A stretch of 43,739 nt of DNA from a virus (IMGVR_UViG_3300033148_003279:1-43739); one strand, 5' to 3'; counted from the first letter of the stretch, positions 2,068 through 40,215 are shown. Numbers and translations are program-made. The notes: generated from the sequence alone by a model not told the origin.

Positions 2068-2490
2068 ATGGTGATGAACCTACTTGAGATTCCGCATGCC
2101 GCTGACCTGCCGACATCTGTGCCTGAGGGGGACTACACCCTCGAGCTCCAGCGGATCAGTAAGGCATACTCGAGAGACGCGCAGGCTCCTGGCATCAAGT
2201 GCAGCCTCGCTACCCTCGCTGATGAAAGCCCTGATGGAATGCCTGTCGATGTCTTGAAATGGTGCAGCCTGGAGGCTGAGCGCGTTTGGGTGCTTGCCCA
2301 GTCGCTCGACTTCCTTGATGCTCTTGGCATCGAGCGACAGCAGCTCCAGGCCAACAGCAGCGGAGCGATGAGCGATGAGGAGCTCAACGCATACCTCGCT
2401 ACATTCCAAGGAGCGCAGGTCCGCTGCCATCTGACTGTCCGTGAGTATGAGGGCAGGAGTGTAAACGACGTTCAGAGTGTTGTGGCATAG
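2068..2490 (+). CDS. DUF669-like putative ssDNA-binding protein
   Basis: Directly follows the AAA_24 gene, as in many phages. About 140 aa, with a VPEGDYTLEL pattern. SD ggagg lies 7 nt before ATG 2068; the track start at 2047 has no SD. Confidence 0.4.
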   Translation: MVMNLLEIPHAADLPTSVPEGDYTLELQRISKAYSRDAQAPGIKCSLATLADESPDGMPVDVLKWCSLEAERVWVLAQSLDFLDALGIERQQLQANSSGAMSDEELNAYLATFQGAQVRCHLTVREYEGRSVNDVQSVVA

Positions 2491-2513
2491 TTTCTTCAAA
2501 GTTTGAAAAAACT
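2489..2513 (+). promoter_or_regulatory. palindromic motif copy 1: AGTTTCTTCAAAGTTTGAAAAAACT
   Basis: Overlaps the upstream stop codon TAG. Lies 20 nt before ATG 2534. Confidence 0.8.
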
Positions 2514-2533
2514 CCAAAAAAGGAGCACTAAGA

Positions 2534-2878
2534 ATGGCAAAAGTGAAGAGAGAATGGTCCAGTGCGGATGAGCAAGTCATTTGCACCGTTGACGATGTGA
2601 AGAAGTTCATCGCTCGAGGCGGCAACTCGATTCAGATCAACGCTTCTATGTCCGCTGAAACAGTGGACTATGATGTCCTGGAGCAACTCCTGGCCATCAC
2701 GAAGACAGACTCTGAGGGCAATGAGAAGCCCGCCATCAGTGTCATCGTTCGCAAGTACCCGAAGACCACCGCATCCAAGGTCAGCCCCGCCGTGAGGGCC
2801 CTCTTGGATCAGGGCCTCTCTCCTGACGAGCTCGTAGCCCGCCTGGAGGAGATGGCCTCAGGACCCGAATCCGAATGA
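2534..2878 (+). CDS. hypothetical protein (114 aa)
   Basis: SD aaaggag. Preceded by palindromic motif copy 2489-2513 and followed by GC hairpin 2891-2915. Confidence 0.65.
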   Translation: MAKVKREWSSADEQVICTVDDVKKFIARGGNSIQINASMSAETVDYDVLEQLLAITKTDSEGNEKPAISVIVRKYPKTTASKVSPAVRALLDQGLSPDELVARLEEMASGPESE

Positions 2879-2890
2879 CCATCCGACAGG

Positions 2891-2915
2891 AGGGGGAGGG
2901 CCCATCCCTCCCCCT
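2891..2915 (+). terminator. GC hairpin agggggaggg-cccat-ccctccccct (10-bp stem, no U tract)
   Basis: Direct reading. Lies in the intergenic gap after 2534..2878. Confidence 0.3.
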
Positions 2916-2934
2916 CCTTCGAAGGAGAACCGTT

Positions 2935-9533: not shown

Positions 9534-9558
9534 AGTTTCTTCAAACTTTGAAAAAACT
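9534..9558 (+). promoter_or_regulatory. palindromic motif copy 2: AGTTTCTTCAAACTTTGAAAAAACT
   Basis: Starts 3 nt after the upstream stop. Lies 16 nt before ATG 9575. Confidence 0.8.
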
Positions 9559-13724: not shown

Positions 13725-14602
13725 TCACCCCTCCCCATTGCCGCTGCTCTAATCATTTCCATCTCCTCCTTCGACAATCCAATCCCCGATCCAGCCTCCT
13801 CTATCGCACTCCTCCTCCCTGCAGCACTCCCCTCTCCAGTCCTCCCAAGCCTCCCCTTAAGCTCCGATCTCAAATATTGGAGCAGGTTCTCCAAAAGCTC
13901 GATCCTGCGATTCCACTCCTCCACCTCTTCAGGTGGCGCCTGCCTCCCCAGCATTCTCAGGTTGCCCTTCGCACTGTCGATGGCATTACTCACGGCGGAT
14001 ATCTGCTGAGCGATTCGCAGCGGATCCATGCCGACCAACTCTGCTTGGAGTGCCTCTGGACTGAGAGATCGCAGATACTCCAATTCAGCTGCTGCCTTGA
14101 GTTCCCCAAGAGCTGTCTTCGCACCCTCCTTAGGTCGCGGCTCTAACGTCGCATACCACCGCAATAACTCCTCTACGGATGCATCGGGAGGTGGGGGTTC
14201 GCCTCCCATACCAGGTCGCGGCTGCATCTCCTTCATCGCTTCTGCAATGAAATCAGCCTTCCACCTTGCCTCTTGTGCCCTCTGCGATGGAGTCAGTCCT
14301 CCCTTTGCCCTTGCTCGACGTTCCGCTGTCAGTGCCTCCGCTTCCTCGATCCTGCTCAATCGCTCCTCCCGCTCGAGCCAGGGGTCCCACCACAACATCT
14401 TTTCCTGCTCCGTCAGGAGATCGAACTCTCCTTTTCGCATTTGGAGGTCATGAAGCGCCTTCTGCATCTTCAATCGCTCCTCCTCCATCCGCAGCCGCTC
14501 TCGCGCATCCCTCATCTCCCTCCCCTTTTGGAGCCCCACAACGAGCCCCCTGAGTGCCTCCCCAAACGGATCACTCGCTCTTTCATGAATTACTGTAGCC
14601 AA
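13721..14602 (-). CDS. internal virion protein, coiled coil (~293 aa)
   Basis: The track start at 14623 is TTG. An in-frame TTG at 14602 has SD aggagg 6 nt upstream. The start is uncertain. Confidence 0.45.
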   Translation of the reverse strand: MATVIHERASDPFGEALRGLVVGLQKGREMRDARERLRMEEERLKMQKALHDLQMRKGEFDLLTEQEKMLWWDPWLEREERLSRIEEAEALTAERRARAKGGLTPSQRAQEARWKADFIAEAMKEMQPRPGMGGEPPPPDASVEELLRWYATLEPRPKEGAKTALGELKAAAELEYLRSLSPEALQAELVGMDPLRIAQQISAVSNAIDSAKGNLRMLGRQAPPEEVEEWNRRIELLENLLQYLRSELKGRLGRTGEGSAAGRRSAIEEAGSGIGLSKEEMEMIRAAAMGRGE

Positions 14603-14655
14603 TTCGCACCTCCTGCCACCCAAAGCGGGATCGTTCTCATACTCTATATCTCCCG

Positions 14656-14680
14656 AGTTTTTTCAAACTTTGAAGAAACT
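14656..14680 (-). promoter_or_regulatory. palindromic motif copy 3. Read in gene direction it is identical to copy 1.
   Basis: Overlaps the stop TGA of 14680..15387, upstream of the 13721.. gene. Confidence 0.8.
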
Positions 14681-15387
14681 CACTTCCCGCCGCCGGCTCC
14701 GCCGCCGGCTCCTCCTCCGCCGGCTCCGCCGCCGGCTCCGGCGGCCCCACTAGTTCCGCCCTTCCCTCCTATTGCCGCTGATCCTATTTGACCTCCTGCC
14801 TGAAACAGAGGGCCAATGACGTTTGGTCGCTCTGTCACTGTCGCGATGTTCTCCATCGATGGGGTGCCCAAGAAAGCCAATCCCTGGCTCATCCCATACG
14901 CCCTCTCGGGATACTCCCACTTAGGCTGCGCTCGCAAAACCTCCAACCCACTCATCACATTCCCAAGCTGTCTCTGCTCCTCTGCCGCCTCCGTCGCTGC
15001 TCTTTGCAGATTGATCGCCCTCATCCAGTCATCCCACGCCTCCTGCTCAGCCAGCATCCTCGGCCCTGACCAGTAGTTCCCTCCAGGTCCCGCATAGGAT
15101 GCCCTCAGCGATGGCAGAACCGTCTCCTTCATCAACCTCCTCTGAGGCTCCACCACCGCCTCTTGGAACCGCTGTTCTCGCTCTCGCCCATAATCATAAG
15201 GCAGAGCGCCCTCCCCCATCAGCGACATCCCAACCTGCTCCATCACCGGAGCCCAATCCGCTCGCTCTGGAGCCCTACCAATCAACTCCTGGATGATGTT
15301 TGAGATGTCGGTCTCAACAGCCTGTTGGGCAGGGCTCAATCGGGGATACTGTCTCGTATGTGTCTTCGATCCGCCAGCCATACTCAT
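14680..15387 (-). CDS. internal virion protein with a Gly-rich C-terminal tail (235 aa)
   Basis: ORF track. The C-terminus reads GGKGGTSGAAGAGGGAGGGGAGGGAGGGK. ATGA overlap with the upstream gene. Confidence 0.45.
   Translation of the reverse strand: MSMAGGSKTHTRQYPRLSPAQQAVETDISNIIQELIGRAPERADWAPVMEQVGMSLMGEGALPYDYGREREQRFQEAVVEPQRRLMKETVLPSLRASYAGPGGNYWSGPRMLAEQEAWDDWMRAINLQRAATEAAEEQRQLGNVMSGLEVLRAQPKWEYPERAYGMSQGLAFLGTPSMENIATVTERPNVIGPLFQAGGQIGSAAIGGKGGTSGAAGAGGGAGGGGAGGGAGGGK
14686..14745 (-). repeat. imperfect 12-bp repeat GCCGCCGGCTCC, about 4 copies, encoding the Gly/Ala-rich C-terminal tail
   Basis: Direct reading. Perfect units lie at 14689-14700, 14701-14712 and 14728-14739. Confidence 0.85.
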
Positions 15388-19786: not shown

Positions 19787-19811
19787 GGGGAGGGGCAGGA
19801 AGCCCCTCCCC
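19787..19811 (-). terminator. GC hairpin ggggaggggc-aggaa-gcccctcccc (10-bp stem, no U tract)
   Basis: Direct reading. Lies between motif copy 4 and the SD of 19006..19770. Confidence 0.3.
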
Positions 19812-19813: not shown

Positions 19814-19838
19814 AGTTTTTTCAAAGTTTGAAAAAACT
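19814..19838 (-). promoter_or_regulatory. palindromic motif copy 4: AGTTTTTTCAAAGTTTGAAAAAACT (perfect palindrome)
   Basis: Lies between the stop at 19844 and the start at 19770, followed by GC hairpin 19787-19811. Confidence 0.8.
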
Positions 19839-24841: not shown

Positions 24842-24866
24842 AGTTTTTTCAAACTTTGAAGAAACT
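24842..24866 (-). promoter_or_regulatory. palindromic motif copy 5. Read in gene direction it is identical to copy 1.
   Basis: Overlaps the stop TGA of 24866..25183. Lies 14 nt before the portal ATG. Confidence 0.8.
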
Positions 24867-25183: not shown

Positions 25184-25247
25184 ATACCTACCTCCATCAC
25201 TCCCAACACTGAACTCCACACAGGCAGTCATCCGAATTCGCTTTACT

Positions 25248-28091: not shown

Positions 28092-28116
28092 AGTTATTTC
28101 AAAGTCTGAAGAAACT
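28092..28116 (-). promoter_or_regulatory. palindromic motif copy 6 (degenerate): AGTTATTTCAAAGTCTGAAGAAACT
   Basis: Lies between the tailspike stop at 28120 and ATG 28078. Confidence 0.7.
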
Positions 28117-28119: not shown

Positions 28120-30300
28120 TTAAGCCGGTTTTGCGTACGCTCCAGGAGTCAAAGGCGTATATGCGAGGGTCCAAACAATCTGCCCCGTACTAGCGGCCCC
28201 CATTGTTACGGTAATTGCGCTCGTGATGGCTTTCCCATACGCCGTAAACGAATGCTGGACAGCCGTTGCCGACCCCTCATACACGCTCACATCAGTAGTG
28301 CCAACAAGGGCATCACTCGCATCCTTGTTCCAGTGAATGTCGCTATCAACAGCAAACCCATCGATGTCCAGCGTACCCGCATCGAGATCGACAGCCGCTG
28401 CCGCCTGGGACGCTTTCACCTTCAGTGCCACCGTCGTCGCTTGGGCCTGGATCGCTTGACTAATGTGTCCATCAATGTTATCAATGCTAATCCTCCCGAT
28501 GAAATTGAACAAATCAACGGCGGAAGCAGTAAACGGAGAGCCATCCACCTTCGTAAGCAGAATCGGTCCCGTCCCTGAGTATGCAACATCACGATCGCCC
28601 CCTCCTGCAATCTCATACCCAGCAACTCCGTCCCAACAATTACGCACAATGAATGTCGATCCTCCGACAGTATCCACGACATCCTTCGTTACTGCAGCAC
28701 TCTTATTGTGGAACGTGCAATCCTCAATGAGTGCATTCGTACAAGCTCCTGTAGTGAAATCCACACAGGCCGTACTGAAAGTTCCACTGAAGTGGCACCC
28801 TCGAACGACGAGCCCATCAACCGGACCAACGATGTTTATTCCATGTGATGGTAAGGTATCAGCGACGTTGAACGAACACCTCTCAACGCGTAGACGATCA
28901 GCGGCGTTAGTAGTAAGAATGCAGCTCGAGATGTCAGTATCTGTATCAACTCCTCGAAACTCCAAATCTCGAAGCGTGACTCCCGCACCACTAATCGTAA
29001 CCGCGGCAGTTACGTCGGTTGTCCCAGAAACCGTAATGATCATATTCTCCAGCCGAACGCCGTTTCCGCTGATGGGGATATTACCCGCGGCATTCGTCAT
29101 AGTGATTATGGGTCGGTTGTCTCCCGTTCCCTCACCAATGATCGAAACATCAGCTATATCAGGGACAATGGACGTCGCATCAGCAACGTTCTCCGTATAC
29201 CGCGCATCTACATGAATGACGTTTGCTTCTGACGTGGTGCACTTATTGATGGCATTATCAATACTATCCAACGCCGTCGCCCACGACTCGCCACTGTTCG
29301 TTGAAGCCCCATCAGGACTTACATAGAAATGCTGTGTTGCGGTCGGAGCTCCAGCAATGGTTATAGGCCCACCTCCGCCTCCGGTCAGAGGGACAATGTT
29401 ACCCCCATCGGCCAGAGCTATGCCTACGTCCTCGCCAAGATTGACCTTACCCAGAACGAGAGCATTCTCAATCTCGCTGGCTCCACCAGCTCCGCCTAGA
29501 CGCCCCCTAAATCGAGTAACCATACCCGTCGCATTGGCATCAAAGGCAAGTAGGATGTTCTCAGTGGCTTCAGTCATGAGGGTGCAATCCTCAATGAGGA
29601 CATCCAACGCTTCGTCACCCTCATTCTTTATTACTCCCTCCTCCCAATCGCCCCCTCTGGCGGTCAATCTGCGGATGGTGCACTGATCGCAGCCGTTGAG
29701 ATGCACCGCGCAATGAGCATCTCCATCTCCTGTGTTTTGTCCCTCAATAACAATGTCTTCAAGAACAATGCGAGCGGCAGCTCCAACGGACAGCAGATCC
29801 ACTGCCTCGCAATCGGTCGCCTCAACAATCTCCAGCCTCGACAATCGCGATCCAGCTCCAGACACCACAATGGGTGCTGCCGCCGCATCGATGGCTATAC
29901 TAATCCGCACATTGTCGAGCAGCGTACCAGCTCCACTAAGGAGGATGTTCGCTCCCGCGTCCGTATCAATGGTTAGAAGGGGCCTATTGTCTCCGTAACC
30001 CTGTCCAATTACAGACACGTCAGCCTTATCGATGTCCAAGTCACCATCAGCACTAATGGACTCTGTATGGCTGCTGCCAAGCACGATGCGATCCCCACGC
30101 CCTGCAACGCATTGCGCAAGAGCGCTCTTGATGCTATCAAGGGGCGCAGTCCACGCACGGCCATACCCCGTAGTGGCTCCTGCAATGCTGTTCCCCTGTG
30201 CGTCAGTGGCATTCGCATTCACAAAGAACGTCTTGCCATAACCAAGAAAGGCGTCATCCAACCTCTCCGCAGTCACAGCAGTAAACCTATCATTCCTCAT
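28120..30300 (-). CDS. tailspike with two tandem right-handed beta-helix (pectate-lyase-like) modules
   Basis: 726 aa. The block W..(A/P)LDSI..A...C ... ADVS.IG.G.GDNRP..T ... SG.G..L.N ... VSGAG..L..LE occurs twice. SD gaggag. Confidence 0.6.
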   Translation of the reverse strand: MRNDRFTAVTAERLDDAFLGYGKTFFVNANATDAQGNSIAGATTGYGRAWTAPLDSIKSALAQCVAGRGDRIVLGSSHTESISADGDLDIDKADVSVIGQGYGDNRPLLTIDTDAGANILLSGAGTLLDNVRISIAIDAAAAPIVVSGAGSRLSRLEIVEATDCEAVDLLSVGAAARIVLEDIVIEGQNTGDGDAHCAVHLNGCDQCTIRRLTARGGDWEEGVIKNEGDEALDVLIEDCTLMTEATENILLAFDANATGMVTRFRGRLGGAGGASEIENALVLGKVNLGEDVGIALADGGNIVPLTGGGGGPITIAGAPTATQHFYVSPDGASTNSGESWATALDSIDNAINKCTTSEANVIHVDARYTENVADATSIVPDIADVSIIGEGTGDNRPIITMTNAAGNIPISGNGVRLENMIITVSGTTDVTAAVTISGAGVTLRDLEFRGVDTDTDISSCILTTNAADRLRVERCSFNVADTLPSHGINIVGPVDGLVVRGCHFSGTFSTACVDFTTGACTNALIEDCTFHNKSAAVTKDVVDTVGGSTFIVRNCWDGVAGYEIAGGGDRDVAYSGTGPILLTKVDGSPFTASAVDLFNFIGRISIDNIDGHISQAIQAQATTVALKVKASQAAAAVDLDAGTLDIDGFAVDSDIHWNKDASDALVGTTDVSVYEGSATAVQHSFTAYGKAITSAITVTMGAASTGQIVWTLAYTPLTPGAYAKPA

Positions 30301-30344
30301 CTTTCTTACTCCTCTGGCCGTCTAACGGCCTCTGCTGTTCGGCG

Positions 30345-30369
30345 AGTTCTTTCAACATTTGAAAAAACT
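30345..30369 (-). promoter_or_regulatory. palindromic motif copy 7 (degenerate): AGTTCTTTCAACATTTGAAAAAACT
   Basis: Lies in the 167-nt terL-tailspike gap, 44 nt before ATG 30300. Small hairpin 30316-30330 lies in between. Confidence 0.7.
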
Positions 30370-32644: not shown

Positions 32645-32669
32645 AGTTGTTTCAGAGTTTGAAGAAACT
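32645..32669 (-). promoter_or_regulatory. palindromic motif copy 8 (degenerate): AGTTGTTTCAGAGTTTGAAGAAACT
   Basis: Lies 18 nt before the terS ATG 32626. It is the first element of the leftward arm. Confidence 0.7.
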
Positions 32670-32858
32670 TGACGGCCCTGGGGGCTGCTACTATTATAGG
32701 ATGTATTGTGGTGTTTGTCAAGGATATTCCGCGGAAAACTCATTGTGGCGGCCCGCTTCGGGTCGGGAGGGTCGTCAGCACAATAAGTGAAAAATATGAT
32801 GAAGGGATGAGGGAGGGGTTAGAGGAATTCCGCAGGGGGGCCTGGGGGGATGCCTCGC

Positions 32859-32890
32859 GCGCGCCCGCCTGCGCGCCCGCCCGCGCGCCC
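32859..32890. repeat. GC-only 12-bp tandem repeat gcgcgcccgcc(t/c), 2.7 copies, flanked by G6 runs. The minus strand has four GGG tracts.
   Basis: Direct reading. Confidence 0.85.
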
Positions 32891-32916
32891 AACCTTGAAT
32901 CATCGACGGCCCCCTT

Positions 32917-32970
32917 CTCGAATCGTGAATCTCTGAATCTCGAATCTCGAATGTGTGAAACTCTGAATCG
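32917..32970. repeat. iteron-like 7-8-bp periodic repeat (C/G)TGAATCT. There are seven GAATC cores between 32897 and 33001.
   Basis: Direct reading: tcgaatcgtgaatctctgaatctcgaatctcgaatgtgtgaaactctgaatcg. Confidence 0.75.
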
Positions 32971-33210
32971 CATTATGTCAACAATCATCAATCGATGAAT
33001 CTACTTGATCGACCGACCGACGGACCGCCGACGGACGATATGCACCCGCGGCCACAGACGCACAGAGCGGGCCACAGATACAATCCGATTGCATACCGGT
33101 ATCATTGCACCCCTAATCTAATATCAGTCTCAATTCGCCGGAGAATGCGTTGAACTCATAATTCGCAAATTCGCCCCCACACAATTGTGCGGTTTTTTCA
33201 CACCCCATCT

Positions 33211-33225
33211 TGTGGATAATCCACA
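33211..33225. promoter_or_regulatory. back-to-back DnaA boxes forming the 15-bp palindrome TGTGGATAATCCACA
   Basis: TGTGGATAA is the exact complement of the consensus TTATCCACA. TAATCCACA has one mismatch. Confidence 0.6.
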
Positions 33226-33437
33226 ACATATAGTATACCCGTCCACCCCACCCACAACATGTAACAATAACGCACAAGCCATAATGAAATAACGGATACT
33301 ATATGTCGTGGGTAACGTCGCGTTGACAACAAGACCTTGCGGAATCGGTCGCGAAAACAGTTAATTCATTCACGTTGCCGCGGGTTCGCCGTCGGAACGG
33401 GCGGCGAATTGACGAATTGAACGATTAGAAAGCATGC

Positions 33438-33519
33438 AATATGATATGATATATACATATATACATATATACATATATATATAATACTAATATATCTAAT
33501 AATATAATATATATATAAC
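33438..33519. other. AT-rich tract of ~80 bp containing (ATATACAT)n; candidate DNA-unwinding element
   Basis: Direct reading. Flanked on both sides by CCACA-type boxes. Confidence 0.5.
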
Positions 33520-33644
33520 GGTTTCAGATCTGTCAATTTTACAATTCCATAGAATCGCACCCGACGTGAAATAATGAATTAACCTTATACCATATCTTGT
33601 ATGTTTCGCGGCGAAACAGCATACTTTATACCATATATAGTGGA

Positions 33645-33656
33645 AGTTATTTCAAA
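33645..33656. promoter_or_regulatory. isolated left half-site AGTTATTTCAAA of the palindromic motif
   Basis: Identical to the left arm of copy 11. Lies inside the non-coding origin-like region. Confidence 0.4.
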
Positions 33657-33748
33657 ACTCGGCGTGAAATAATTGATTCGCGAACGCACGCCTTTACAAC
33701 CGTTGAATCCGCACCCACAACATGTAGTGTTGTCCACTATCGTGGACA

Positions 33749-33757
33749 CTATCCACA
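33749..33757 (+). promoter_or_regulatory. DnaA-box-like CTATCCACA (one mismatch), within a cluster of TGTCCAC / CCACAACAT boxes
   Basis: TGTCCAC occurs at 33731, 33742 (complement) and 33821. CACCCACAACATGTA occurs at 33250-33264 and 33712-33726. Confidence 0.45.
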
Positions 33758-33772
33758 ATACCGAACAAGACA

Positions 33773-33801
33773 CCTAAACTCTTTCCCTACAACAGTTTAC
33801 G
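33773..33801 (+). repeat. 29-bp direct repeat, copy A: cctaaactctttccctacaacagtttacg
   Basis: 28 of 29 identical to 33891-33919, 118 bp away. Confidence 0.85.
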
Positions 33802-33819
33802 TAAACCTTTGAAAAAACT
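33794..33819. promoter_or_regulatory. degenerate motif copy with a 2-nt centre: AGTTTACGTAAACCTTTGAAAAAACT
   Basis: The right arm is perfect; the left arm has 3 mismatches. Lies in the non-coding region between the two 29-bp direct repeats. Confidence 0.45.
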
Positions 33820-33890
33820 CTGTCCACGATACCGGACACCAAACCTTGAATCGTTGTCAACGCTGTTTCGTTACAGTTTTTTACAATTTC

Positions 33891-33919
33891 CCTAAACTCT
33901 TTCCCTACAACACTTTACG
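33891..33919 (+). repeat. 29-bp direct repeat, copy B: cctaaactctttccctacaacactttacg
   Basis: 28 of 29 identical to 33773-33801. Confidence 0.85.
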
Positions 33920-33956
33920 ACACCAAAACCGACAGTTTTCATTCAACATTCGCCAA

Positions 33957-33985
33957 TTGGCACAGTTTTTGCGCCTTATTATAGT
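33957..33985 (+). promoter_or_regulatory. candidate sigma70-type early promoter: TTGGCA, 17-nt spacer, TATAGT
   Basis: Hexamers and spacing were read directly. Lies about 110 nt upstream of the first rightward gene. Confidence 0.35.
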
Positions 33986-34094
33986 GTTCTTTGATAATTT
34001 ATGGCGGCAAGCCGACATCGTGTTAGGTTTCTCGGCCGCGTGGTGCGGCCACCAGTGCGATACGTTGGCATTGCCATAGGATAGGGGAAAGACA

Positions 34095-34577
34095 ATGGCA
34101 AAGCGGAAACTGATCTGGACTAAGTCGGTGAAGTCGGTCGCGGAACTGGACGATTTGATTGCCAATGGTGTAATCGGTGCGGATGGGCAAATGCATGCCG
34201 CTACTAATGTTCAATACGACGTTGGTATCAGTCTGCAGGCCGAAACTGGTGTGGCCCGCGCGCGCCGGATTCTCGGCGTCCTTGCCGATGCGGGTTTAAT
34301 TGGCAAGGGCTTAGTCGGCTGTTTCGTTCGGTCGTATTCGTCACCAACCGCTGAGGCTAAGGCGAAAGCGGAGGCGGAACGTCGGGAACGAGATCGTAAC
34401 CGTATGCTCGATCTAAGTCGGCAAGCGATGGCGCTCGGCCTACAGGGTAACGAGTTTGTATCCGCCGTCCGTGATGCGATGGACAAAGGATTGTCGGTGT
34501 TACCTGGATTCGACGGGTTCCCCGACGATTGGCCCAACTCCGACGAATCCGATTCCAACGCCGACGAATCCGAATAA
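34095..34577 (+). CDS. first rightward gene: wHTH-like protein with an acidic C-terminal tail (160 aa)
   Basis: SD ggggaaag. Contains ETGVARARRILGVLADAGLIGKG. C-terminus DDWPNSDESDSNADESE. Its codon usage is CpG-rich with no AGA/AGG, unlike the rest of the genome. Confidence 0.65.
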   Translation: MAKRKLIWTKSVKSVAELDDLIANGVIGADGQMHAATNVQYDVGISLQAETGVARARRILGVLADAGLIGKGLVGCFVRSYSSPTAEAKAKAEAERRERDRNRMLDLSRQAMALGLQGNEFVSAVRDAMDKGLSVLPGFDGFPDDWPNSDESDSNADESE

Positions 34578-34591
34578 GCAAGCCAACAGTA

Positions 34592-34628
34592 GTGGCAAGA
34601 CGCTAATTCAATATTAGCGTCTTGCCAC
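34592..34628 (+). terminator. perfect 16-bp-stem hairpin gtggcaagacgctaat-tcaat-attagcgtcttgccac
   Basis: Direct reading. Starts 15 nt after the stop of 34095..34577. No U tract. Confidence 0.45.
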
Positions 34629-34678
34629 TCCGCCAATTCACCGTGCAACATTCGCAAACAGTCAACGGAGATTCGACA

Positions 34679-35011
34679 ATGCAGAATGAAAAGCTATTCA
34701 CCCTCCTCGACCTCTTAGGCCACGAACTCTACAGCAGAGGGCATTTGGACCTCGTGGATGTGGTGTCCGACATCGAGGATGAGGCCTTCGGGCCTTTGGG
34801 CCTTCGTAGCCGTCAAACGGCCAACGGGCATTCGATAGAGTGCGAGAATCGTGAATGTGTCTTCAACGATTTCGGAGAGTGCACCTGCGATCACGTCCAG
34901 CTTATCCGATCCTACACTGGGGACCTCGTTTGCAATTCGTTCTGGACAGATGCGGATTTGCGAAGCAGGGTTGAGTTTGGAAAGATGCTGACGCGAAAGG
35001 TTCAGGACTAA
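34679..35011 (+). CDS. Cys-rich small protein, DUF1540-like (paralog of 41024..41224)
   Basis: ECENRECVFNDFGECTCDHVQLI...LVCNSFW. SD ggag lies before ATG 34679. The track start at 34622 is a TTG inside the hairpin. Confidence 0.55.
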   Translation: MQNEKLFTLLDLLGHELYSRGHLDLVDVVSDIEDEAFGPLGLRSRQTANGHSIECENRECVFNDFGECTCDHVQLIRSYTGDLVCNSFWTDADLRSRVEFGKMLTRKVQD

Positions 35012-35021
35012 CCGTCAACGG

Positions 35022-35047
35022 GGGAGGCGCCTTTGGTGGCGCCTCCC
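35022..35047 (+). terminator. GC hairpin gggaggcgcc-tttggt-ggcgcctccc
   Basis: Direct reading. Lies after 34679..35011, just before motif copy 10. Confidence 0.35.
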
Positions 35048-35058
35048 TCCATCCACTC

Positions 35059-35083
35059 AGTTTCTTCAAACTTTGAAGAAACT
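35059..35083 (+). promoter_or_regulatory. palindromic motif copy 10: AGTTTCTTCAAACTTTGAAGAAACT (perfect palindrome)
   Basis: Follows GC hairpin 35022-35047. Lies 55 nt before ATG 35139. Confidence 0.8.
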
Positions 35084-35138
35084 CCAGTTTGGGCCTTCGG
35101 GCCTTCGGGCATTCGACAAAAAGAAAGGAGATCTGACA

Positions 35139-35366
35139 ATGCGTGTCATAGTGTGTAGTGCAGACGTCGAGGATGCGGCTGACCGCATCCGCAGATTCGT
35201 CGATGGGTTCCCTACTTCATCTGAGGAGTTCCAACGCTTCAGGCGTTGCCTCAGCGAGTCCGCCAACGGCCTGCTCGCATCGTCTGAAGATGCGATCATT
35301 GAGGCAGCAATAACAGAGTTCATCGAAGGCGAAGGGAGAGGCGATCATGGCTTACGTTCGTCCTAA
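35139..35366 (+). CDS. hypothetical protein (75 aa)
   Basis: SD aaaggag lies 8 nt before ATG 35139. The track start at 35073 lies inside the motif copy. Confidence 0.55.
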   Translation: MRVIVCSADVEDAADRIRRFVDGFPTSSEEFQRFRRCLSESANGLLASSEDAIIEAAITEFIEGEGRGDHGLRSS

Positions 35367-35556
35367 CTTCCGCACGAAGAAGGCTCTCCGTGAAGCCCTC
35401 AGGGCAGGCGAGCCTGTTGAGGTGTTTCAGCCTGGGATCGGGACCATCCCCAATGATGGTCCCGTCACCCTGGAGGGTCCTTGGCACCCTCAGCCTCACA
35501 CCTGGTATGCCAGAGGCATAATGAAGAATGGGCAGTTGACCAGGCTTGTGAGTTGA
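35347..35556 (+). CDS. hypothetical protein (69 aa)
   Basis: ORF track. SD gggagagg. Confidence 0.55.
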   Translation: MAYVRPNFRTKKALREALRAGEPVEVFQPGIGTIPNDGPVTLEGPWHPQPHTWYARGIMKNGQLTRLVS

Positions 35557-37045: not shown

Positions 37046-37070
37046 AGTTATTTCAAACTTTGAATAAACT
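37046..37070 (+). promoter_or_regulatory. palindromic motif copy 11: AGTTATTTCAAACTTTGAATAAACT
   Basis: Follows hairpin 36983-37015. Lies 16 nt before ATG 37087. Confidence 0.75.
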
Positions 37071-37368: not shown

Positions 37369-37749
37369 ATGCGATACAAAGGTCAGAAGTGCCGCGTTCT
37401 TTGGGAGCGCGATGGAGAATCCAGCATCGTGATGATGTCAGGACGAGATATGGGGAGGCAAATGATTGTCCCCTCAGCCGACATCCAAATCCCTCCGAGT
37501 CCCCCCGAGGAGCTCAAGGCCCTCTCCACAGAGGAGCTCCTTGAGCGCGCGGAGGCCCTCCGCCGCGGCCGCCAGACGGCCCGCGCGGACTGGGCCCTGA
37601 AGCGCCTCCGGAAGGCCCAGAAGGCTCCTACCCATACCTCTGCCCTCCGCCTTCCCCATTCGGAGGTCCAGCGCATCCTGGATGCTGGAGGGGAGTCGGC
37701 TAAGCGGATGCGGCAAATGCTGAAGCAGGGCAAGGTCATAAGCGTCTGA
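37369..37749 (+). CDS. hypothetical protein (126 aa)
   Basis: ORF track. SD aggagg. Confidence 0.6.
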   Translation: MRYKGQKCRVLWERDGESSIVMMSGRDMGRQMIVPSADIQIPPSPPEELKALSTEELLERAEALRRGRQTARADWALKRLRKAQKAPTHTSALRLPHSEVQRILDAGGESAKRMRQMLKQGKVISV

Positions 37750-37763
37750 AAGGAGAAATGCAA

Positions 37764-38009
37764 ATGCAGAACACAATCCCCCGACGGATCCTCCAATCCC
37801 TCAACCAATACATCCATCGGAGGCTCGAGCCTGGTGGATTCCTGAAGGCTGTGCTGATGAATGACCTCAGTGGTGCCCTCAGCCATGCCGACCCAGATTG
37901 CCTCCAATCATTGAAGACCCTCCACCATCACCTTTATTGGCATGCCCCATCCGAATGCTGGGGCAATGCGAAGCGGGTCCAGGAGTGGCTCAAAGGAGGG
38001 CCCGAATGA
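37764..38009 (+). CDS. hypothetical protein (81 aa)
   Basis: SD aaggag lies 8 nt before the second ATG. ATG 37758 is an alternative start. Confidence 0.55.
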   Translation: MQNTIPRRILQSLNQYIHRRLEPGGFLKAVLMNDLSGALSHADPDCLQSLKTLHHHLYWHAPSECWGNAKRVQEWLKGGPE

Positions 38010-39025
38010 ATGACATTCGGATCGGGATGGCGAGCCAGTTGACTGATGGGGTGATGTGGTGTGACTACTCCATGATGCATGAATGGCTCATCTGCCCGCG
38101 CATGTTCTATTGGCACTACATCAGAGGCCAGGTCCCTCGCATTCCCTCCCCAGCCCTCTCTGCTGGTGCGGCATGGCATAGGGGCATGGCATCCCTATGG
38201 CAATCCTGGAATCCTGCCATCGCTACTGCAGAGGCCCTCGATGGCTATGACCCGCCTCCAGAGGATCCTCGCTCTCCGTCCCGCATCGAGTTCCTGCTGC
38301 ATCGCTATGTGGAGGCCTACCCTCCGGAGCAGAACCCCTGGATGATGCTCCTCAACGAGAATGTCTTCAGCGTGGAACTTGCTGACGGGCTCGTATGGAG
38401 GGGCAGAGTTGATAAGGTGCTGCAGCACAGGGGGAATGGCAACATAGTAGTTATGGACCATAAGACCACATCCCGCTATGGGCACCATTTCTTCGAGCAG
38501 TTCTTCCCCTCCTGGCAATTGACAGGATACCAGCTTGGAGCAGAGCGCCTCCTTCGAGCAGGCCGCACTGCGGGGCGCCTTGCGCCCCTGGTGGAAGGGA
38601 TGGACATCCTCGGGGAGGGGCGCATCGCGCCCTTTGCCATCATCGATGTCACAATCCTGACATACGCGAATGTGGAGAATCCCCTCATGACTAAGTCCGG
38701 CCATCCTCGCGCTGGGCAGAAGACATGGAGGGATTGCTTCCACCGCGCGATGCCCCGCGTAACTCCATTCGAGCCTTCGGTCAAGCGGCAAATCATCCAA
38801 GTGATGGAGCAGGAGATGAAGCCCGCCATTGGCATCCTCTCGATGCCCTCGCCGACTGACGCTGAGCTCGATCGCTTTGCTCCCCAGCGTCCTGGAGAGC
38901 ACTCCTGCGATAGGTATGGCGGGTGCCCGTATCGGGAGCTGTGCCGCAGCCCTCAGAACATTCCCGACTTCCTTCGCCATTCCTTCGAGTTCCGGCAGTG
39001 GGATCCGGAGGAGGCCTCATCATGA
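38006..39025 (+). CDS. PD-(D/E)XK nuclease, Cas4/RecB-like, with a Cys cluster
   Basis: GRVDKV, VVMDHKTT and SWQLTGYQ motifs. N-terminal Cys (WLICPR) plus C-terminal CDRYGGCPYRELC. ATGA overlap with the upstream stop. Confidence 0.7.
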   Translation: MNDIRIGMASQLTDGVMWCDYSMMHEWLICPRMFYWHYIRGQVPRIPSPALSAGAAWHRGMASLWQSWNPAIATAEALDGYDPPPEDPRSPSRIEFLLHRYVEAYPPEQNPWMMLLNENVFSVELADGLVWRGRVDKVLQHRGNGNIVVMDHKTTSRYGHHFFEQFFPSWQLTGYQLGAERLLRAGRTAGRLAPLVEGMDILGEGRIAPFAIIDVTILTYANVENPLMTKSGHPRAGQKTWRDCFHRAMPRVTPFEPSVKRQIIQVMEQEMKPAIGILSMPSPTDAELDRFAPQRPGEHSCDRYGGCPYRELCRSPQNIPDFLRHSFEFRQWDPEEASS

Positions 39026-39045
39026 CCTCCGGATCGGGATCAAGA

Positions 39046-40215
39046 ATGTTTTTTCAAACTTTGAATAAACTTTCGGAGTGTGAAGAATGCGGTCGAGAGG
39101 CTGAACTCACACATCTCGAGGGAGTTGGATACGTATGCTCCGAATGCGAGTCTGAATTCTCCCAGTGCGATGATTGTCATCTGTATGCTGACCGAGATGG
39201 CATGACCATACTGGCGAATGGCGAGCGGATCTGCCATTCCTGCATAGACCTGGGAGGTTACGGTCGGTGCGATAACTGCGGTGAATACGCCGCCGAGGAC
39301 GACATGACCATATTGGCGAATGGCCAACAGGTCTGCGAGTCCTGCATCAACTCAGACGACTACTATGAGTGCCGCGAATGCGGGGAGATCCATCACTACA
39401 GCGATATGTCAACCGATGACATCTGTGATGCTTGCTGGGAGGAGATGCGCCACCGCATCCGCGATCATCACGAAGGTCCAGATCCCAATCCTCTCGATGA
39501 TGGCGAGCCCCTGATTGGCGTCGAACTGGAAATCGATGGTGGCGAGCGCGCCGATGTTGTCGATCAACTAATGGACCTCTCCGACTCCGAGGCTTTGTTT
39601 TGGATGGAGGAGGATGGCTCCCTGTCCGATGAAGGCATTGAGATAATCAGCCACCCCGCCTCTGCCCATTATCACACTCACAAATATCCGTGGGCGGACA
39701 TCTGCCACATCGTAAGCAAGGCTGGGTATTACAGTCATAATACAAGCGATTGCGGATTGCATATCCATCTCGAGCGTCGCCGCCTATCGATACGTCAGCA
39801 ACTTGCAATCGGAGTCCACATCTATAATCATCTCCAGCAGTGGCAACAGTTCTGTCGCCGCAAGGTCAATGGATACTGTAAATCCAAGCCTCCTGAGAAA
39901 CATCTTGAGGAGCTTAGAGCGTGTCCATCCTATCCTCCGATTCAGGACGACCGATATGAGGTCCTAAATTATCAGAACGCTGATACAATCGAGTTCCGCC
40001 TCCCCCGCGGGACTCTGAAGCCTGAAACGATCAAGGCAACCATTCAAGCCATCGATGCCTTATGGCATTACGTCCGCCGCCCAGAGACCTCACTCGATGA
40101 TATTGCCCAGCCGCAGGCCTGGGATGATTTCATCCAGTATGCTACGGCTGATCGACGGGCGGAGCTTCGACAGTATTTAGTCGGGAGAGCCCTAATGCGA
40201 AAGGAGAAAGATTAA
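39046..40215 (+). CDS. amidoligase (Amidoligase_2, glutamine-synthetase-like) with an N-terminal array of zinc ribbons
   Basis: IGVELEIDGG and EEDGSL..EGIEIISHP patterns. Five CxxC pairs, with the DMTILANG..(I/V)C.SCI repeat occurring twice. The only usable in-frame start is ATG 39046, so the motif copy lies in codons 1-9. Confidence 0.6.
   Translation: MFFQTLNKLSECEECGREAELTHLEGVGYVCSECESEFSQCDDCHLYADRDGMTILANGERICHSCIDLGGYGRCDNCGEYAAEDDMTILANGQQVCESCINSDDYYECRECGEIHHYSDMSTDDICDACWEEMRHRIRDHHEGPDPNPLDDGEPLIGVELEIDGGERADVVDQLMDLSDSEALFWMEEDGSLSDEGIEIISHPASAHYHTHKYPWADICHIVSKAGYYSHNTSDCGLHIHLERRRLSIRQQLAIGVHIYNHLQQWQQFCRRKVNGYCKSKPPEKHLEELRACPSYPPIQDDRYEVLNYQNADTIEFRLPRGTLKPETIKATIQAIDALWHYVRRPETSLDDIAQPQAWDDFIQYATADRRAELRQYLVGRALMRKEKD
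39047..39071 (+). promoter_or_regulatory. palindromic motif copy 12: TGTTTTTTCAAACTTTGAATAAACT
   Basis: Lies 21 nt after the Cas4-like stop and overlaps the first codons of the amidoligase ORF. Confidence 0.75.

Follow-up and report, generated by a model that had tools for sequence, protein, structure and literature searches.

Eleven copies of a 25-bp palindrome, a possible operator, at the gene junctions of an uncultured phage

Introduction

The closest described systems come from mycobacteriophages and their relatives. In Cluster K mycobacteriophages, the ESAS, which occur together with the SAS, are imperfect inverted repeats found at many gene junctions (PMC3203893; PMC11373665; PMC12699233). 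Stoperators are known from Cluster A mycobacteriophages and relatives, for example L5, Bxb1 and Streptomyces R4 (PMC6550527; PMC9283540; PMC10276819). Such genome "punctuation" is known from a few other phages and has never been explained in a phage of the present kind.

Here, we describe an uncultured phage of 43.6 kb, in which a single 25-bp palindrome is found in eleven copies, on both gene arms. Its closest analogues are the Cluster K ESAS and the Cluster A stoperators, and it is a member of neither. We tentatively read the 25-mer, with a probability of about 0.4, as an operator-type duplex-DNA site for a candidate dimeric protein, which would act on transcription through both arms. The window is the whole stretch of DNA analysed (43,739 nt), and coordinates are counted from its first letter.

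Results

The whole genome was searched for the motif with up to 3 mismatches, with 100 dinucleotide-preserving shuffles as controls. All eleven full copies of the original prediction were recovered, with no further sites (Table 1), and the full motif had 0 occurrences in the 100 shuffles. The half-site AGTTTYTTCAAA, with at most 1 mismatch, occurs 22 times, compared with 0.12 expected. Twenty of these are inside the eleven full copies; the other two belong to the partial copies previously proposed for the non-coding region, and are the only half-sites outside the full copies.

Table 1. Motif copies and neighbouring features in the window.
Feature	Coordinates	Strand	Context
Motif copy AGTTTCTTCAAAGTTTGAAAAAACT	2489..2513	+	Overlaps stop of upstream gene (2047/2068-2490); ends 20 nt before ATG 2534; heads block 114 aa - 82 aa - ParB_N/MTase - PolA
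Motif copy	9534..9558	+	3 nt past stop 9530; GGGAGA 2 nt downstream, then ATG 9575 of last + arm gene
Motif copy	14656..14680	-	Overlaps stop of gene 14680-15387; then GGGAGA, ATG 14640
Motif copy, perfect palindrome	19814..19838	-	5 nt past stop 19844; then GC-rich hairpin 19787-19811, SD, ATG 19770
Motif copy	24842..24866	-	Overlaps stop of gene 24866-25306; 14 nt before portal ATG 24827
Motif copy, 2 mismatches	28092..28116	-	3 nt past stop of 726-aa beta-helix gene; 13 nt before ATG 28078
Motif copy	30345..30369	-	167-nt gap, TerL (stop 30468) to 726-aa gene (ATG 30300); then small hairpin GGCCG-N5-CGGCC (about 30316-30330)
Motif copy	32645..32669	-	18 nt before TerS ATG 32626
TTGACA-17-TATAAT promoter	32693..32721	-	Heads structural arm
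Isolated half-site AGTTATTTCAAA	33645..33656	+	Non-coding region between arms
Isolated perfect right half-site TTTGAAAAAACT	33808-33819	+	Within partial copy 33794..33819; adjoins a different perfect 12-bp palindrome, GTTTACGTAAAC (33795-33806)
Two-gene early block	34095..35011	+	160-aa protein plus Cys-rich protein of 110-129 aa
Motif copy, perfect palindrome	35059..35083	+	After first two + arm genes; preceded by GC-rich hairpin (about 35020-35049); then GGGCCTTC x3 repeat/hairpin 35091-35115, SD, ATG 35139
Motif copy	37046..37070	+	175-nt gap; 134 nt past stop 36911, 16 nt before ATG 37087
Motif copy	39047..39071	+	21 nt past stop 39025; 15 nt before SD + ATG 39087

Each copy consists of two 12-bp half-sites, AGTTTyTTCAAA, flanking a variable centre base (C in seven copies, G in three, T in one). 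Seventeen of the 25 positions are invariant across the copies, every G and C among them, and the degenerate positions (5-6, 13 and 20-21) are symmetrically arranged, with 5-6 mirroring 20-21. Pair 6/20 is mismatched in 8/11 copies, and pairs 5/21, 11/15 and 12/14 change on one side only; no compensation of arm differences is seen within the genome. Two copies are perfect palindromes, and copies 2489, 14656 and 24842 are identical when read in gene orientation, both as described before. An asymmetry that follows gene direction, also claimed, is suggestive: position 6 of the half-site is C in 7/11 upstream halves and in 1/11 downstream ones (Fisher p = 0.024, uncorrected for 12 positions). However, the bias sits at one position, and relative L148 has two copies in opposing orientation inside one gene arm. 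Copy spacings fall in near-equal sets of about 2.0, 2.3, 5.1 and 7.1 kb.

All copies fall within non-coding DNA, which makes up 9.3% of the genome, and none, as noted originally, within a gene body; of 20 gaps with a length of 25 nt or more, 11 hold one. Each lies after a stop codon and ahead of the following ribosome-binding site, with six overlapping or almost touching the upstream stop. The distance from motif end to next ATG is 13-55 nt, the range given originally, and 8/11 copies end 13-20 nt ahead of the start codon, with the SD 2-8 nt off. The junction order is constant: motif, optional GC hairpin, SD, ATG. Copy 37046, far from stop 36911 and close to ATG 37087, adjoins the SD and not the stop. 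All genes but the first two of the + arm are downstream of some copy. Copy 39047 was thought to overlap the amidoligase ORF, but this need not be so: an SD (GGAG) and ATG 39087, probably the true start, follow as at other junctions. Likewise, copy 37046 need not overlap coding sequence, with ATG 37087 following. ATG 14640, downstream of copy 14656, opens an ORF of 16 codons only, and the 293-aa gene there more likely starts at TTG 14602 (SD AGGAGG).

The promoter heading the structural arm is alone in the window in matching the sigma-70 consensus at 12/12 positions, and copy 32645 lies at about +18..+42 relative to it, ahead of TerS. Across 43 kb there are two sigma-70-like promoters only. The best + arm candidate (33957-33985) has half-site TTTGAAAAAACT about 140 bp upstream. 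Upstream of the ten internal copies no promoter-like sequence was found (mean best score 5.90, compared with 5.92 at random positions), and thus these copies are likely transcribed within long mRNAs. As sense-strand RNA, the copies are predicted to form AU-rich hairpins with stems of at most 11-12 bp and energies from -2.8 to -10.5 kcal/mol, 8/11 being at -4.1 or weaker.

Gene junctions of some distant relatives (GC 33-46%), patchily distributed, carry related motifs with the core TTCAA-N3-TTGAA, as variants that differ by lineage. For example, TTCAAA/TTTGAA of the window is TTCCAy/rTGGAA in L002 and TTCAAT/ATTGAA in L148. Between lineages 7/11 pairs are altered on both sides, and the arm covariation score is 0.257, compared with 0.100 in shuffles (0/500 reach 0.257). 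Both half-sites shift together, and the symmetry itself is therefore under selection. The order promoter, motif, TerS is also present in three distant relatives, L002, L039 and L147 (degenerate in L147), with a variable promoter-to-motif distance. Relatives' junctions were compared, as put forward with the original prediction: downstream of TerL, L002 (as a variant), L039, L147 and L148 carry the motif. The closest relatives, L001 and L146 (66-71% protein identity), lack the word at the same junctions. At the junction of copy 28092, L001 and L002 have a GC-rich hairpin in place of the motif.

Some sites in relatives are placed differently. In L039, motif copies flank the promoter at about -84..-72 and +39..+51, and one follows directly after the MCP stop, 68 nt from the next start. 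L147 carries GTTTTTTCAAA...TGAAAATAC at a long distance upstream of the promoter, and a motif copy of L010 is preceded by a GC hairpin. Across relatives, no gene gave a clean case of co-occurrence with the motif.

Searches of the scanned ORFs, the early and small + arm proteins among them, against Pfam, PHROGs and PDB retrieved no HTH, repressor or sigma family. Sequence searches of the same databases also retrieved no phage RNA polymerase or sigma factor, as anticipated for the polymerase, and the DxDGD motif is absent from every long ORF. For several large proteins (1335 aa, 892 aa) annotation is sparse or absent; the 1335-aa protein is helical, basic and of internal-virion type, and the 726-aa protein is beta-helix-like. 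No integrase or repressor was found in the phage, which encodes its own PolA and primase and looks virulent. Further encoded are a PD-(D/E)XK nuclease, an HNH endonuclease and an AAA_24 ATPase, a family that includes Sak4-type recombinases.

The products of 34095..34577 and 276..773, previously suggested as HTH/wHTH proteins, were not confirmed as such and neither had a family match. The former, of 160 aa, has no homolog in the protein database, a weak tblastn match in L146 (34% over 73 aa) and an unusable AlphaFold model (pLDDT 55). Because the two genes of the early block are the sole + arm genes without a preceding copy, we infer that they are candidate sources of the motif-binding factor.

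Discussion

In the operator reading, each half-site would be read by one subunit of a two-fold-symmetric protein, probably encoded by the phage itself. Copy 32645 is positioned just past the start site of the consensus sigma-70 promoter driving the packaging/structural arm, and the other ten copies are within the two long transcription units, heading gene blocks. The bound protein would affect RNA polymerase during start or passage. The sites may be roadblocks or attenuators, gating each block downstream, or loading points for a factor modifying elongation; in both cases, a single protein would govern the two arms simultaneously. Directly observed are the architecture of the sites, their confinement to non-coding DNA, their relation to the one promoter and their evolution in relatives. 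From these we infer a protein ligand, its binding to DNA and not to RNA, its origin from the phage and the sign of its effect.

Operators fit best because the arms are conserved and the centre is variable, the degenerate positions are symmetric and the within-genome variation is uncompensated, and because related sites also lie outside the arm's mRNA, as in L039, L147 and the two isolated half-sites of the window. In structured RNA, the loop would normally be conserved and the stems would covary. The joint change of both half-sites between lineages and the promoter, motif, TerS order shared with relatives also support this reading. Furthermore, the patchy spread and the lineage-specific variants are more in line with a factor co-evolving with its sites than with a universal signal of the host. 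Several points speak against an operator. The searches identified no DNA-binding protein and no cleanly co-occurring gene. Symmetry leaves the SD adjacency, kept even in the 175-nt gap of copy 37046, unexplained, as well as the fixed junction order and the C6/A20 bias. A roadblock at the six stop-adjoining copies would truncate the upstream message, and it is not evident why a seemingly virulent phage would need a repressor acting across its genome. A hairpin predicts symmetric covariation between lineages equally well.

An RNA-level cistron leader is the best, though still unlikely, alternative, and the covariation of the two arms counts in its favour. Here, the motif would work within the polycistronic mRNA, immediately 5' of the SD, either as a protein-binding operator hairpin that sets translation per block, like coat-protein, RegA and gp43-type operators, or as an AU-rich endonuclease processing site dividing long transcripts, with neighbouring GC hairpins shielding the new ends. 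The tight spacing of 8/11 copies to the start codon, the SD adjacency kept in large gaps (37046, 39047 and the 32645 leader) and the transcription of ten promoterless copies within long mRNAs would all be expected. Long spacers (19814, 30345, 35059) hold a GC hairpin between motif and SD, and at 35059 and in L010 one also precedes the motif, the layout expected around a cleavage site. The RN|WUU-like AU-rich tracts resemble RNase E sites, but a loose RNase E preference would not keep 17 positions invariant. The hairpins are weak, pairing at 5/21 or 6/20 is lost in 40% of the copies across lineages, and an invariant stem with a variable loop base is the opposite of typical RNA operators. In addition, copies and half-sites upstream of promoters lie in DNA that is probably not transcribed, the L039 copy behind the MCP stop is far from the next start, and there is no match in Rfam.

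A phage-specific promoter with unrecognised machinery is less probable again. Initiation at the downstream edge of the 25-mer would give short SD-containing leaders, by a novel phage RNA polymerase or by the host enzyme under the direction of a phage factor; recognition might involve extrusion of the DNA as a hairpin, as with the N4 virion RNA polymerase. The layout is T7-like (a conserved element of ~25 bp, optional 5' stem-loop, GGAG, ATG), the GC hairpins that immediately precede copy 35059 and the L010 copy could be terminators, and the scarcity of sigma-70-like promoters, the position of nearly every gene downstream of a copy and the poorly annotated large proteins leave room for such a system. 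However, the searches gave no enzyme, and the 726-aa and 1335-aa proteins are beta-helix-like and of internal-virion type, respectively. Promoters of single-subunit polymerases are asymmetric, the motif-to-GGAG spacing varies from 2 to 8 nt, one copy is directly behind a perfect host promoter, and replication and structural genes alike have the same signal. The hairpin would be unstable, with uncompensated mismatches.

About as improbable is another DNA-level role, not primarily transcriptional: a binding site of a conserved nucleoid or regulatory protein of the host, single-strand initiation (priming) hairpins of the lagging-strand template, nicking at specific sites, or conserved linkers favouring recombination and the exchange of gene blocks among phages. 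Near-identical words in phages with 26-34% protein identity and GC of 33-54% could stem from an external reader common to them or from recombinational exchange. The encoded ATPase and two nucleases, and the near-equal spacing sets, would also suit such a role. Moreover, gene direction agrees with GC skew and with the presumed fork direction in each of the two arms, so the orientation bias could follow replication as easily as transcription. Nevertheless, the absence of the word in L001 and L146 argues against a universal host reader, and we know of no bacterial operator matching the motif. Hairpin stability is low, nothing ties the sites to nuclease or primase specificity, and recombination linkers need no dyad symmetry.

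The familiar explanations rejected at the outset stay rejected: a CRISPR array, a sigma-70 promoter (the internal copies score as random, and a -10 box after TTGAAA would hit the start codon), an intrinsic terminator (GC-rich stem and U tract are both absent) and an RNase III substrate (short AU-rich stem, mostly -4 kcal/mol or weaker). The original interpretation is thus partly supported, and its three candidates can be ranked with the operator first, the RNA hairpin weaker and the phage-specific promoter left with no candidate polymerase.

Turning back to the operator, known systems resemble the motif to different degrees. PeSL (promoter-early stem-loop) cassettes of T4-type phages are likewise short regulatory modules repeated between genes and common to divergent phages, thought to favour gene shuffling; unlike the motif, they hold a sigma-70 early promoter and a stable stem-loop and are restricted to hyperplastic early regions. 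N4 hairpin promoters, with 5-7-bp stems and for early genes only, show how an inverted repeat read on one strand gives a symmetric-looking element direction, but the stem of the motif is unstable, genes of every class have copies ahead of them, and no gene for a polymerase like the virion-carried one of ~3500 aa was found. In the T7 group, ~40-kb podoviruses, about 10-17 conserved junction elements, phage-polymerase promoters and RNase III sites, often precede a 5' stem-loop and SD and split long transcripts into units. T7 promoters, however, are asymmetric and need a phage RNA polymerase, which was not found here, and RNase III sites are irregular hairpins of ~50 nt, compared with our 25-nt AU-rich palindrome.

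The conserved inverted repeats (CIRs) of phiC31, bound by the c repressor, and the C1 operators of P1 are dispersed operator sets of temperate phages (about 15-20 copies, operator ~17 bp, genomes 40-90 kb). Like the motif, they are spread over the genome with many intergenic positions, and the phiC31 CIRs are palindromic. They serve lysogeny repressors and mostly overlap promoters, whereas here no lysogeny genes were found and only one copy is near a promoter.

ESAS share with the motif a place directly upstream of an SD-containing element and start codon, sometimes over the upstream stop, arm departures that do not support an RNA hairpin, a consensus varying by sublineage and sites tied to different gene families. 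However, their arms are 15-17 bp long and 4-14 bp apart, compared with 12 bp around a single base. Adephagia ESAS contain a SigA-type -35/-10 promoter, while our ten internal copies are promoterless; ESAS occur only in the non-structural arm of temperate siphoviruses, while the motif is found in both arms of a phage that looks virulent; and the separate conserved 13-bp SAS is absent here. There is no sequence or protein relationship.

Stoperators, roughly 20-30 or more per genome, are also many copies of a short word on both arms, in short intergenic gaps and often touching stop or start codons, with a further site at a major promoter and one DNA-binding protein proposed to act on elongating polymerase genome-wide. 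They are 13-14 bp, asymmetric, strongly one-oriented and bound by a monomeric immunity repressor, and their temperate phages encode this repressor plus integrase or parABS; here, a 25-bp palindrome in 11 copies has only a weak orientation signal, and no repressor or integrase was found. Of the "stoperator-like operator" proposed originally, the operator of a dimeric regulator therefore fits best, and the stoperator, being asymmetric, monomer-bound and temperate, is an analogy only.

Genome architecture and encoded proteins

The window, a JGI metagenome contig, has at its ends an exact 114-bp repeat situated inside a 15-bp tandem array, which indicates that the genome is complete, with about 43.6 kb, and either circular or circularly permuted. 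The copy number of the array may be mis-assembled, and the array itself could represent iterons or a second origin. The genes form two arms on opposite strands, which lead away from each other on either side of a 1.4-kb non-coding region (about 32750-34090) and meet near 9.7 kb. The portal protein has a weak SU10-portal similarity, below the Pfam cut-off. Pfam and PHROGs searches, covering most ORFs, revealed no integrase, repressor, HTH, sigma factor or RNA polymerase families, and the window contains no tRNAs. The phage seems to be virulent, not temperate. A megablast of the whole window against GenBank phages gave no match, and the best TerL match among these phages, by tblastn, had 25% identity. 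Consensus sigma-70 promoters, strong Shine-Dalgarno sequences (SDs) and DnaA-box-like sequences point to a bacterium as the probable host.

Features of the phage genome, with the start coordinates of the motif copies
Feature	Position	Strand	Details
+ arm	34095 across contig ends to 9748	+	small early genes, PD-(D/E)XK nuclease, amidoligase, AAA_24 ATPase
+ arm, further genes		+	ParB_N-methylase fusion, UDG-PolA fusion, HNH endonuclease, DUF3987 primase/helicase
arm	32626 to 9717	-	TerS, TerL, 726-aa protein, portal, major capsid protein (MCP), large virion proteins
15-bp tandem array	43460-43735 and 1-100		within + arm; consensus GGGCGAACCTTGCGG, about 18 + 7 copies
GC-rich 12-bp repeats	32853-32890
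GANTC sites	32897-32997		seven within 100 bp, in GAATC-type repeats
DnaA-box-like sequences	33211-33225; 33749		TGTGGATAA/TAATCCACA; CTATCCACA
(AT)n tract	33439-33517
29-bp direct repeat	33773 and 33891
Full motif copies	2489, 9534, 14656, 19814, 24842, 28092, 30345, 32645, 35059, 37046, 39047

With its repeats and DnaA-box-like sequences, the inter-arm region has the appearance of an origin combined with early control elements. Since the methylase of the phage (3120-4520) belongs to the N6/N4 type, the GANTC sites may be methylated. A perfect 12-bp palindrome, GTTTACGTAAAC (33795-33806), which we take to resemble the KorA operator of IncP plasmids (GTTTAGCTAAAC), may be the site for a second regulator.

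A 726-aa protein is encoded between TerL and portal (28120-30300, - strand). It has two similar beta-helix-like segments, with the repeats GDRIVLGSSHTESI... and VSVIGQGYGDNRPLLTID..., and is conserved in the related contigs L001 (71%) and L002 (52%). It is probably a tailspike or a fibre-like protein, encoded at an unusual place in the genome.

A palindromic motif confined to non-coding DNA

The motif is a 25-bp palindrome, composed of two 12-bp half-sites (AGTTTyTTCAAA) around a variable centre base. A search with AGTTTCTTCAAANTTTGAAAAAACT, allowing at most 3 mismatches, recovered exactly the eleven full copies of the original prediction and no others, while 100 dinucleotide-preserving shuffles contained none. 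The half-site AGTTTYTTCAAA (12 nt, at most 1 mismatch) occurs 22 times, compared with 0.12 expected. Twenty of these occurrences are inside the full copies, and the other two (33645-33656 and 33808-33819) are isolated between the arms, where partial copies had been predicted. The second of them, a right half-site (TTTGAAAAAACT), is abutted by the perfect 12-bp palindrome. Non-coding DNA makes up 9.3% of the genome, and all eleven full copies, on both arms, are located in it, which bears out the earlier claim that gene bodies are free of the motif. There are 20 gaps of 25 nt or longer, and 11 hold a copy. Only the first two genes of the + arm (34095-35011) have no copy upstream.

Six copies overlap the upstream stop codon or lie within 5 nt of it, and eight of the eleven end 13-20 nt before an ATG, with a GGAG or GGGA 2-8 nt after the motif. 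Even in roomy gaps the motif stays beside the SD: for copy 37046 the stop is 134 nt upstream, the ATG only 16 nt downstream. Copy 39047 (21 nt after the stop, 15 nt before the ATG) had been thought to overlap the amidoligase ORF. With SD-guided starts, however, both 37046 and 39047 are intergenic like the other copies, and the overlap was probably a start-codon artefact. The copies with a long spacer (19814, 30345 and 35059) have a GC-rich hairpin between motif and SD, and 35059 has a further GC hairpin 5′ of the motif. Copy 14656 is followed by GGGAGA and ATG 14640, which opens an ORF of 16 codons only (14590-14655 region), overlapping the likelier start of a 293-aa gene at TTG 14602 (SD AGGAGG). 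The short ORF may encode a leader peptide, or it may have been left behind by a duplication of the motif-SD-ATG unit.

The distances between successive copies around the circle form near-equal sets (1987, 2001; 2253, 2300, 2414; 5028, 5122, 5158; 7045, 7181). These may reflect chance, gene-block size or a structural constraint.

Symmetry and conservation of the motif

Read in gene orientation, the eleven copies share 17 of 25 positions, among them all the G and C residues (G2, C9, G17, C24). At the centre, seven have C, three G and one T, and the other degenerate positions are only 5-6 and 20-21, which are mirror images. As originally described, copies 19814 and 35059 are perfect palindromes, and 2489, 14656 and 24842 have one and the same sequence along the direction of their genes. 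The pair 6/20 is mismatched in 8 of the 11 copies (six C·A, two T·T), and changes at 5/21, 11/15 and 12/14 are one-sided, so that arm differences within the window are uncompensated. Conserved arms, a free centre and symmetric degeneracy together are what characterizes a duplex site recognized by a protein with two-fold symmetry. For structured RNA, a conserved loop and covarying stems are normally expected. The 25-mer folds as sense RNA with -2.8 to -10.5 kcal/mol, 8 of the 11 copies having -4.1 or weaker.

It had also been proposed that the asymmetry follows gene direction. The copies hint at this: position 6 of the half-site is a C in 7/11 upstream halves and in 1/11 downstream halves (Fisher p = 0.024, uncorrected). 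However, the bias concerns a single position, and in the related contig L148 two copies have opposite orientations.

In a larger set of 24 copies from six lineages, 88% of the cells pair and both sides change in 7 of the 11 pairs, with the pairs 5/21 and 6/20 unpaired in about 40% of the copies. The covariation score (0.257, shuffle mean 0.100) was above all 500 shuffles, hence the dyad symmetry is under selection. Such a selected symmetry is expected equally for a dimer site and for a hairpin.

Promoters and known signals

The single perfect sigma-70 promoter of the window, TTGACA-17-TATAAT (32721-32693, - strand), has copy 32645 at about +18 to +42, 18 nt before TerS. A weaker candidate, TTGGCA-17-TATAGT (33957-33985), is found ahead of the first + arm gene. 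In the 80 nt upstream of the ten other, internal copies there is no promoter-like sequence (mean best score 5.90, versus 5.92 at random positions). The internal copies are therefore within long transcription units, unless they are themselves unconventional promoters. Because these copies have no promoters upstream, we also rejected a unit of promoter and operator like the ESAS of mycobacteriophages.

The original prediction had argued against several familiar signals, and our analysis leads to the same conclusions. A sigma-70 promoter was rejected, given that a -10 box after TTGAAA would land on the start codon and is absent, and that scores upstream of the internal copies are at random level. 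An intrinsic terminator was rejected too, as the stem is AU-rich and followed by AAAACT rather than being a GC-rich stem with a U tract. A terminator scan did not flag the motif itself as a hairpin; the motif only provides the T-run tail of two terminator matches on the antisense strand, the stems of which are adjacent sequence. An RNase III site of the T7 type is a long irregular hairpin with some two turns of dsRNA, for which a stem of at most 11-12 bp with internal mismatches is too short. No covariance model of Rfam 15 matched anywhere in the window at E ≤1.

Promoters of single-subunit RNA polymerases have an asymmetric conserved sequence at a fixed distance to the initiating nucleotides. 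A T7-like promoter was rejected, since the element is symmetric and stands at variable distances (2 to 8 nt or more) from the GGAG. As already stated in the original prediction, no phage RNA polymerase gene is recognizable: Pfam and PHROGs gave no RNAP family for most ORFs, the part covered, and no long ORF has a DxDGD motif, although a very divergent enzyme is possible. The 726-aa and a 1335-aa protein, both without PDB sequence, Pfam or PHROG match, were rejected as polymerases, the first for its duplicated beta-helix-like repeats and the second for being helical and basic. N4-type promoters are stable short hairpins extruded from DNA, precede early genes only and are used by a giant virion RNA polymerase. 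This type was rejected for the mismatched stems, mostly of -4 kcal/mol or weaker, the presence of the motif before all gene classes, and the lack of a giant polymerase gene. REP/MITE-like palindromes have a stable GC-rich hairpin, hundreds of host copies and a RAYT transposase, whereas our motif gives a weak, AU-rich hairpin and the phage has no transposase. Further resemblances (parS, KorA/KorB operators, CodY box, ARG boxes, FNR/CRP sites, dif, attC, lambda boxB) presumably each differ in spacing or polarity.

The motif in related phages

Relatives are rare and mostly short contigs. In L002 (TerL 70% identical) a variant motif has both half-sites changed together: GGTTACTTCCAT-T-GTGGAAGAAACT is found at the junction downstream of TerL, and GGTTTGTTTCAC-G-ATGGAATTAACT just behind a TTGACA-18-TATAAT promoter, ahead of TerS. 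L039 (GC 38%), syntenic and with TerL, portal and MCP 26-28% identical, has near-identical copies. Two surround its promoter, one downstream (+39 to +51) and one upstream (-84 to -72), and further copies are found at the TerL end, immediately behind the stop of MCP, and ahead of an SD with ATG. L024 has two copies. At about 30% TerL identity, L147 (part of SDBU01000720.1; GC 46%) carries the core TTCAAA-N-TTTGAA and L148 (GC 37%) the core TTCAAT-N-ATTGAA, in both at stop/SD junctions, including the one downstream of TerL. For the core TTCAA-N3-TTGAA, the chance expectation is about 0.03-0.04 per locus. L010 (MTase, PolA and primase 32-34% identical) has one copy, with a GC hairpin 5′ and an SD and ATG 3′. 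It was rejected as an ortholog of copy 2489: the flanking genes have no detectable homology, so that this orthology would depend on synteny alone.

The expected conservation at equivalent junctions was thus seen in L002, L039, L147 and L148, in each of them downstream of TerL, but not throughout. L001 and L146, from the same sample and 66-71% identical, lack the word and have a GC hairpin or a different recurring word at these junctions, and the core was not found in 22 IMG/VR TerL relatives or in L149-L154, which makes the distribution patchy. L001 and L146 are probably one phage, the closest relative. In L001 (5172-5219) and L146 (4563-4600), TTGTTTAmCCrTTGAATwA recurs upstream of the portal gene and downstream of TerL, at junctions that in the window carry the palindrome, and may be a diverged or replaced counterpart of it.

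An exact-motif scan of IMG/VR gave 0 matches, and a version with A/T tracts gave 45 single matches, all chance or coding. In L160, L169 and L183, the word represents the FSNFEK codons inside an HNH gene. Single matches in AT-rich DNA are not evidence for the motif. A metagenome scan with the invariant core found L039, L024 and L010 and, among the matches listed, mostly single chance ones.

Some relatives show other peculiarities. Four IMG/VR TerL relatives (L126, L127, L136 and L145) have their own recurrent non-palindromic 11-mers, for example CTGCACCCGTC four times and TGACGGGGGCA five times, near TerL and portal gene ends, on both strands and partly coding. These 11-mers are a repeat system of another kind within this broad group of phages. 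In L144 and L145, the match to TerL comes in two pieces separated by 600-800 bp, which suggests an intron, intein or homing-endonuclease insertion, and LAGLIDADG genes adjoin TerL in L148 and L150. L149 (CAZQXW010000016.1; 42.5 kb, TerL 33%) was assigned to a MAG that carries the label of an uncultured Thermoplasmatales archaeon, probably a binning artefact, because related phages have bacterial-type promoters.

A putative operator and the competing explanations

The architecture of the motif, its restriction to non-coding DNA, its relation to the promoter and its lineage-specific co-variation are read directly from the genomes. From these we infer, tentatively (a probability of roughly 40%), that the motif is an operator-type site in duplex DNA for a putative dimeric protein, which would probably be phage-encoded. 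The dimer would act at the late-arm promoter through one copy, and on the polymerase travelling along both arms through the other ten. Its effect could have either sign: the bound protein may be a gate or attenuator, or the site may be a loading point for a factor that modifies elongation.

Pfam and PHROGs searches of most ORFs and PDB sequence searches of five proteins found no DNA-binding regulator, and no binder was found among the small + arm proteins. The early 160-aa protein (34095-34577) has no homolog among 5.8 billion proteins, and its AlphaFold model is unusable (pLDDT 55). A conserved small early protein (35347-35556), basic and of 69 aa, is 49% identical to a protein of L147, though TerL is only 29% identical; its model (pLDDT 77), a small beta-rich fold, has no fold match in the PDB. 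Comparing the occurrence of window proteins and of the motif among the relatives gave no lead either.

A symmetric operator leaves unexplained the consistent adjacency of motif and SD, and the fixed order of motif, hairpin and SD. Both would fit an element acting at the RNA level in the leader of each cistron, as a translational operator or processing site, an explanation we consider unlikely. In L039, L147 and the inter-arm region of the window, sites are located outside mRNA.

It is conceivable, though quite unlikely, that the palindrome signals a gene-expression mechanism new to virulent phages. It could be a new promoter class, read by an unrecognized phage-encoded or phage-modified polymerase, or it could provide dispersed loading sites at which a phage factor would repeatedly board the host polymerase along the two ~20 kb operons, in a dispersed form of Q-like or RfaH-like antitermination. 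If so, one 25-bp word would switch on the whole genome, except for the two-gene early block. That the motif is an unconventional promoter is likewise quite unlikely; this would fit the same adjacency and order, but for a phage-polymerase promoter no polymerase was found. Other roles in DNA (in priming or nicking, as a host factor site or as a recombination linker) are given equally little credence.

Comparison with known systems

A few groups of actinobacteriophages carry genome-wide repeated regulatory words, namely stoperators and SAS/ESAS, from which it was learned that a single small protein is able to govern an entire phage genome. To our knowledge, the ESAS class has had no explanation for 15 years. 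The ESAS/SAS of Cluster K mycobacteriophages appear to be the closest analogue of our motif by position, and the Cluster A stoperators by concept.

ESAS are inverted repeats just upstream of the ribosome-binding site and start codon, with non-compensatory arm differences and a subcluster-specific consensus (PMC3203893). They consist of two 15-17-bp arms with a spacer, are now thought to contain SigA-type -35/-10 promoters (PMC11373665), and their function still lacks tests (PMC12699233). Like ESAS, our motif is an inverted repeat directly 5′ of the ribosome-binding site and start of many genes (8/11 copies, 13-20 nt before the ATG). Unlike ESAS, it has arms of 12 bp around a single centre base, and sequences upstream of the internal copies score as promoters no better than random background. 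Furthermore, only generic GGAG-type SDs follow the motif, without the 13-bp SAS GGGATAGGAGCCC alongside, and copies are present on both arms, whereas ESAS are restricted to the non-structural arm.

In stoperator systems, the bound protein is proposed to block the elongating RNA polymerase, and the phage is temperate, with an immunity repressor gene and an integrase or parABS. Stoperators are asymmetric 13-14-bp sites for a monomeric repressor (PMC9283540), mostly in one orientation relative to transcription (PMC6550527). The motif resembles those of Cluster A in having many copies in short intergenic regions of both arms. It differs in being a 25-bp dyad-symmetric element of two 12-bp half-sites, and, unlike in stoperator phages, no immunity repressor or integrase was found by Pfam and PHROGs in most ORFs, and the ParB_N domain is fused to a DNA methylase. 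Lacking the defining features of both ESAS and stoperators, the motif is a member of neither family.

Here, a comparable system occurs in an uncultured, podovirus-like and seemingly virulent lineage, unrelated to the actinobacteriophage groups. Its unit is a compact palindrome of 25 bp, which is present on both arms and has no attached promoter; distant relatives with widely differing GC contents share it in recognizable variants. Should the reader protein be found, the pair would offer an orthogonal operator and regulator for synthetic biology, and an insight into how phages time two 20-kb operons without a polymerase of their own and with only two recognizable host-type promoters. The word would also be a sequence marker, by which gene blocks in metagenomic phage genomes can be recognized and delimited. 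The motif adds to phage genome punctuation a structurally different system, comparable to stoperators and SAS/ESAS.
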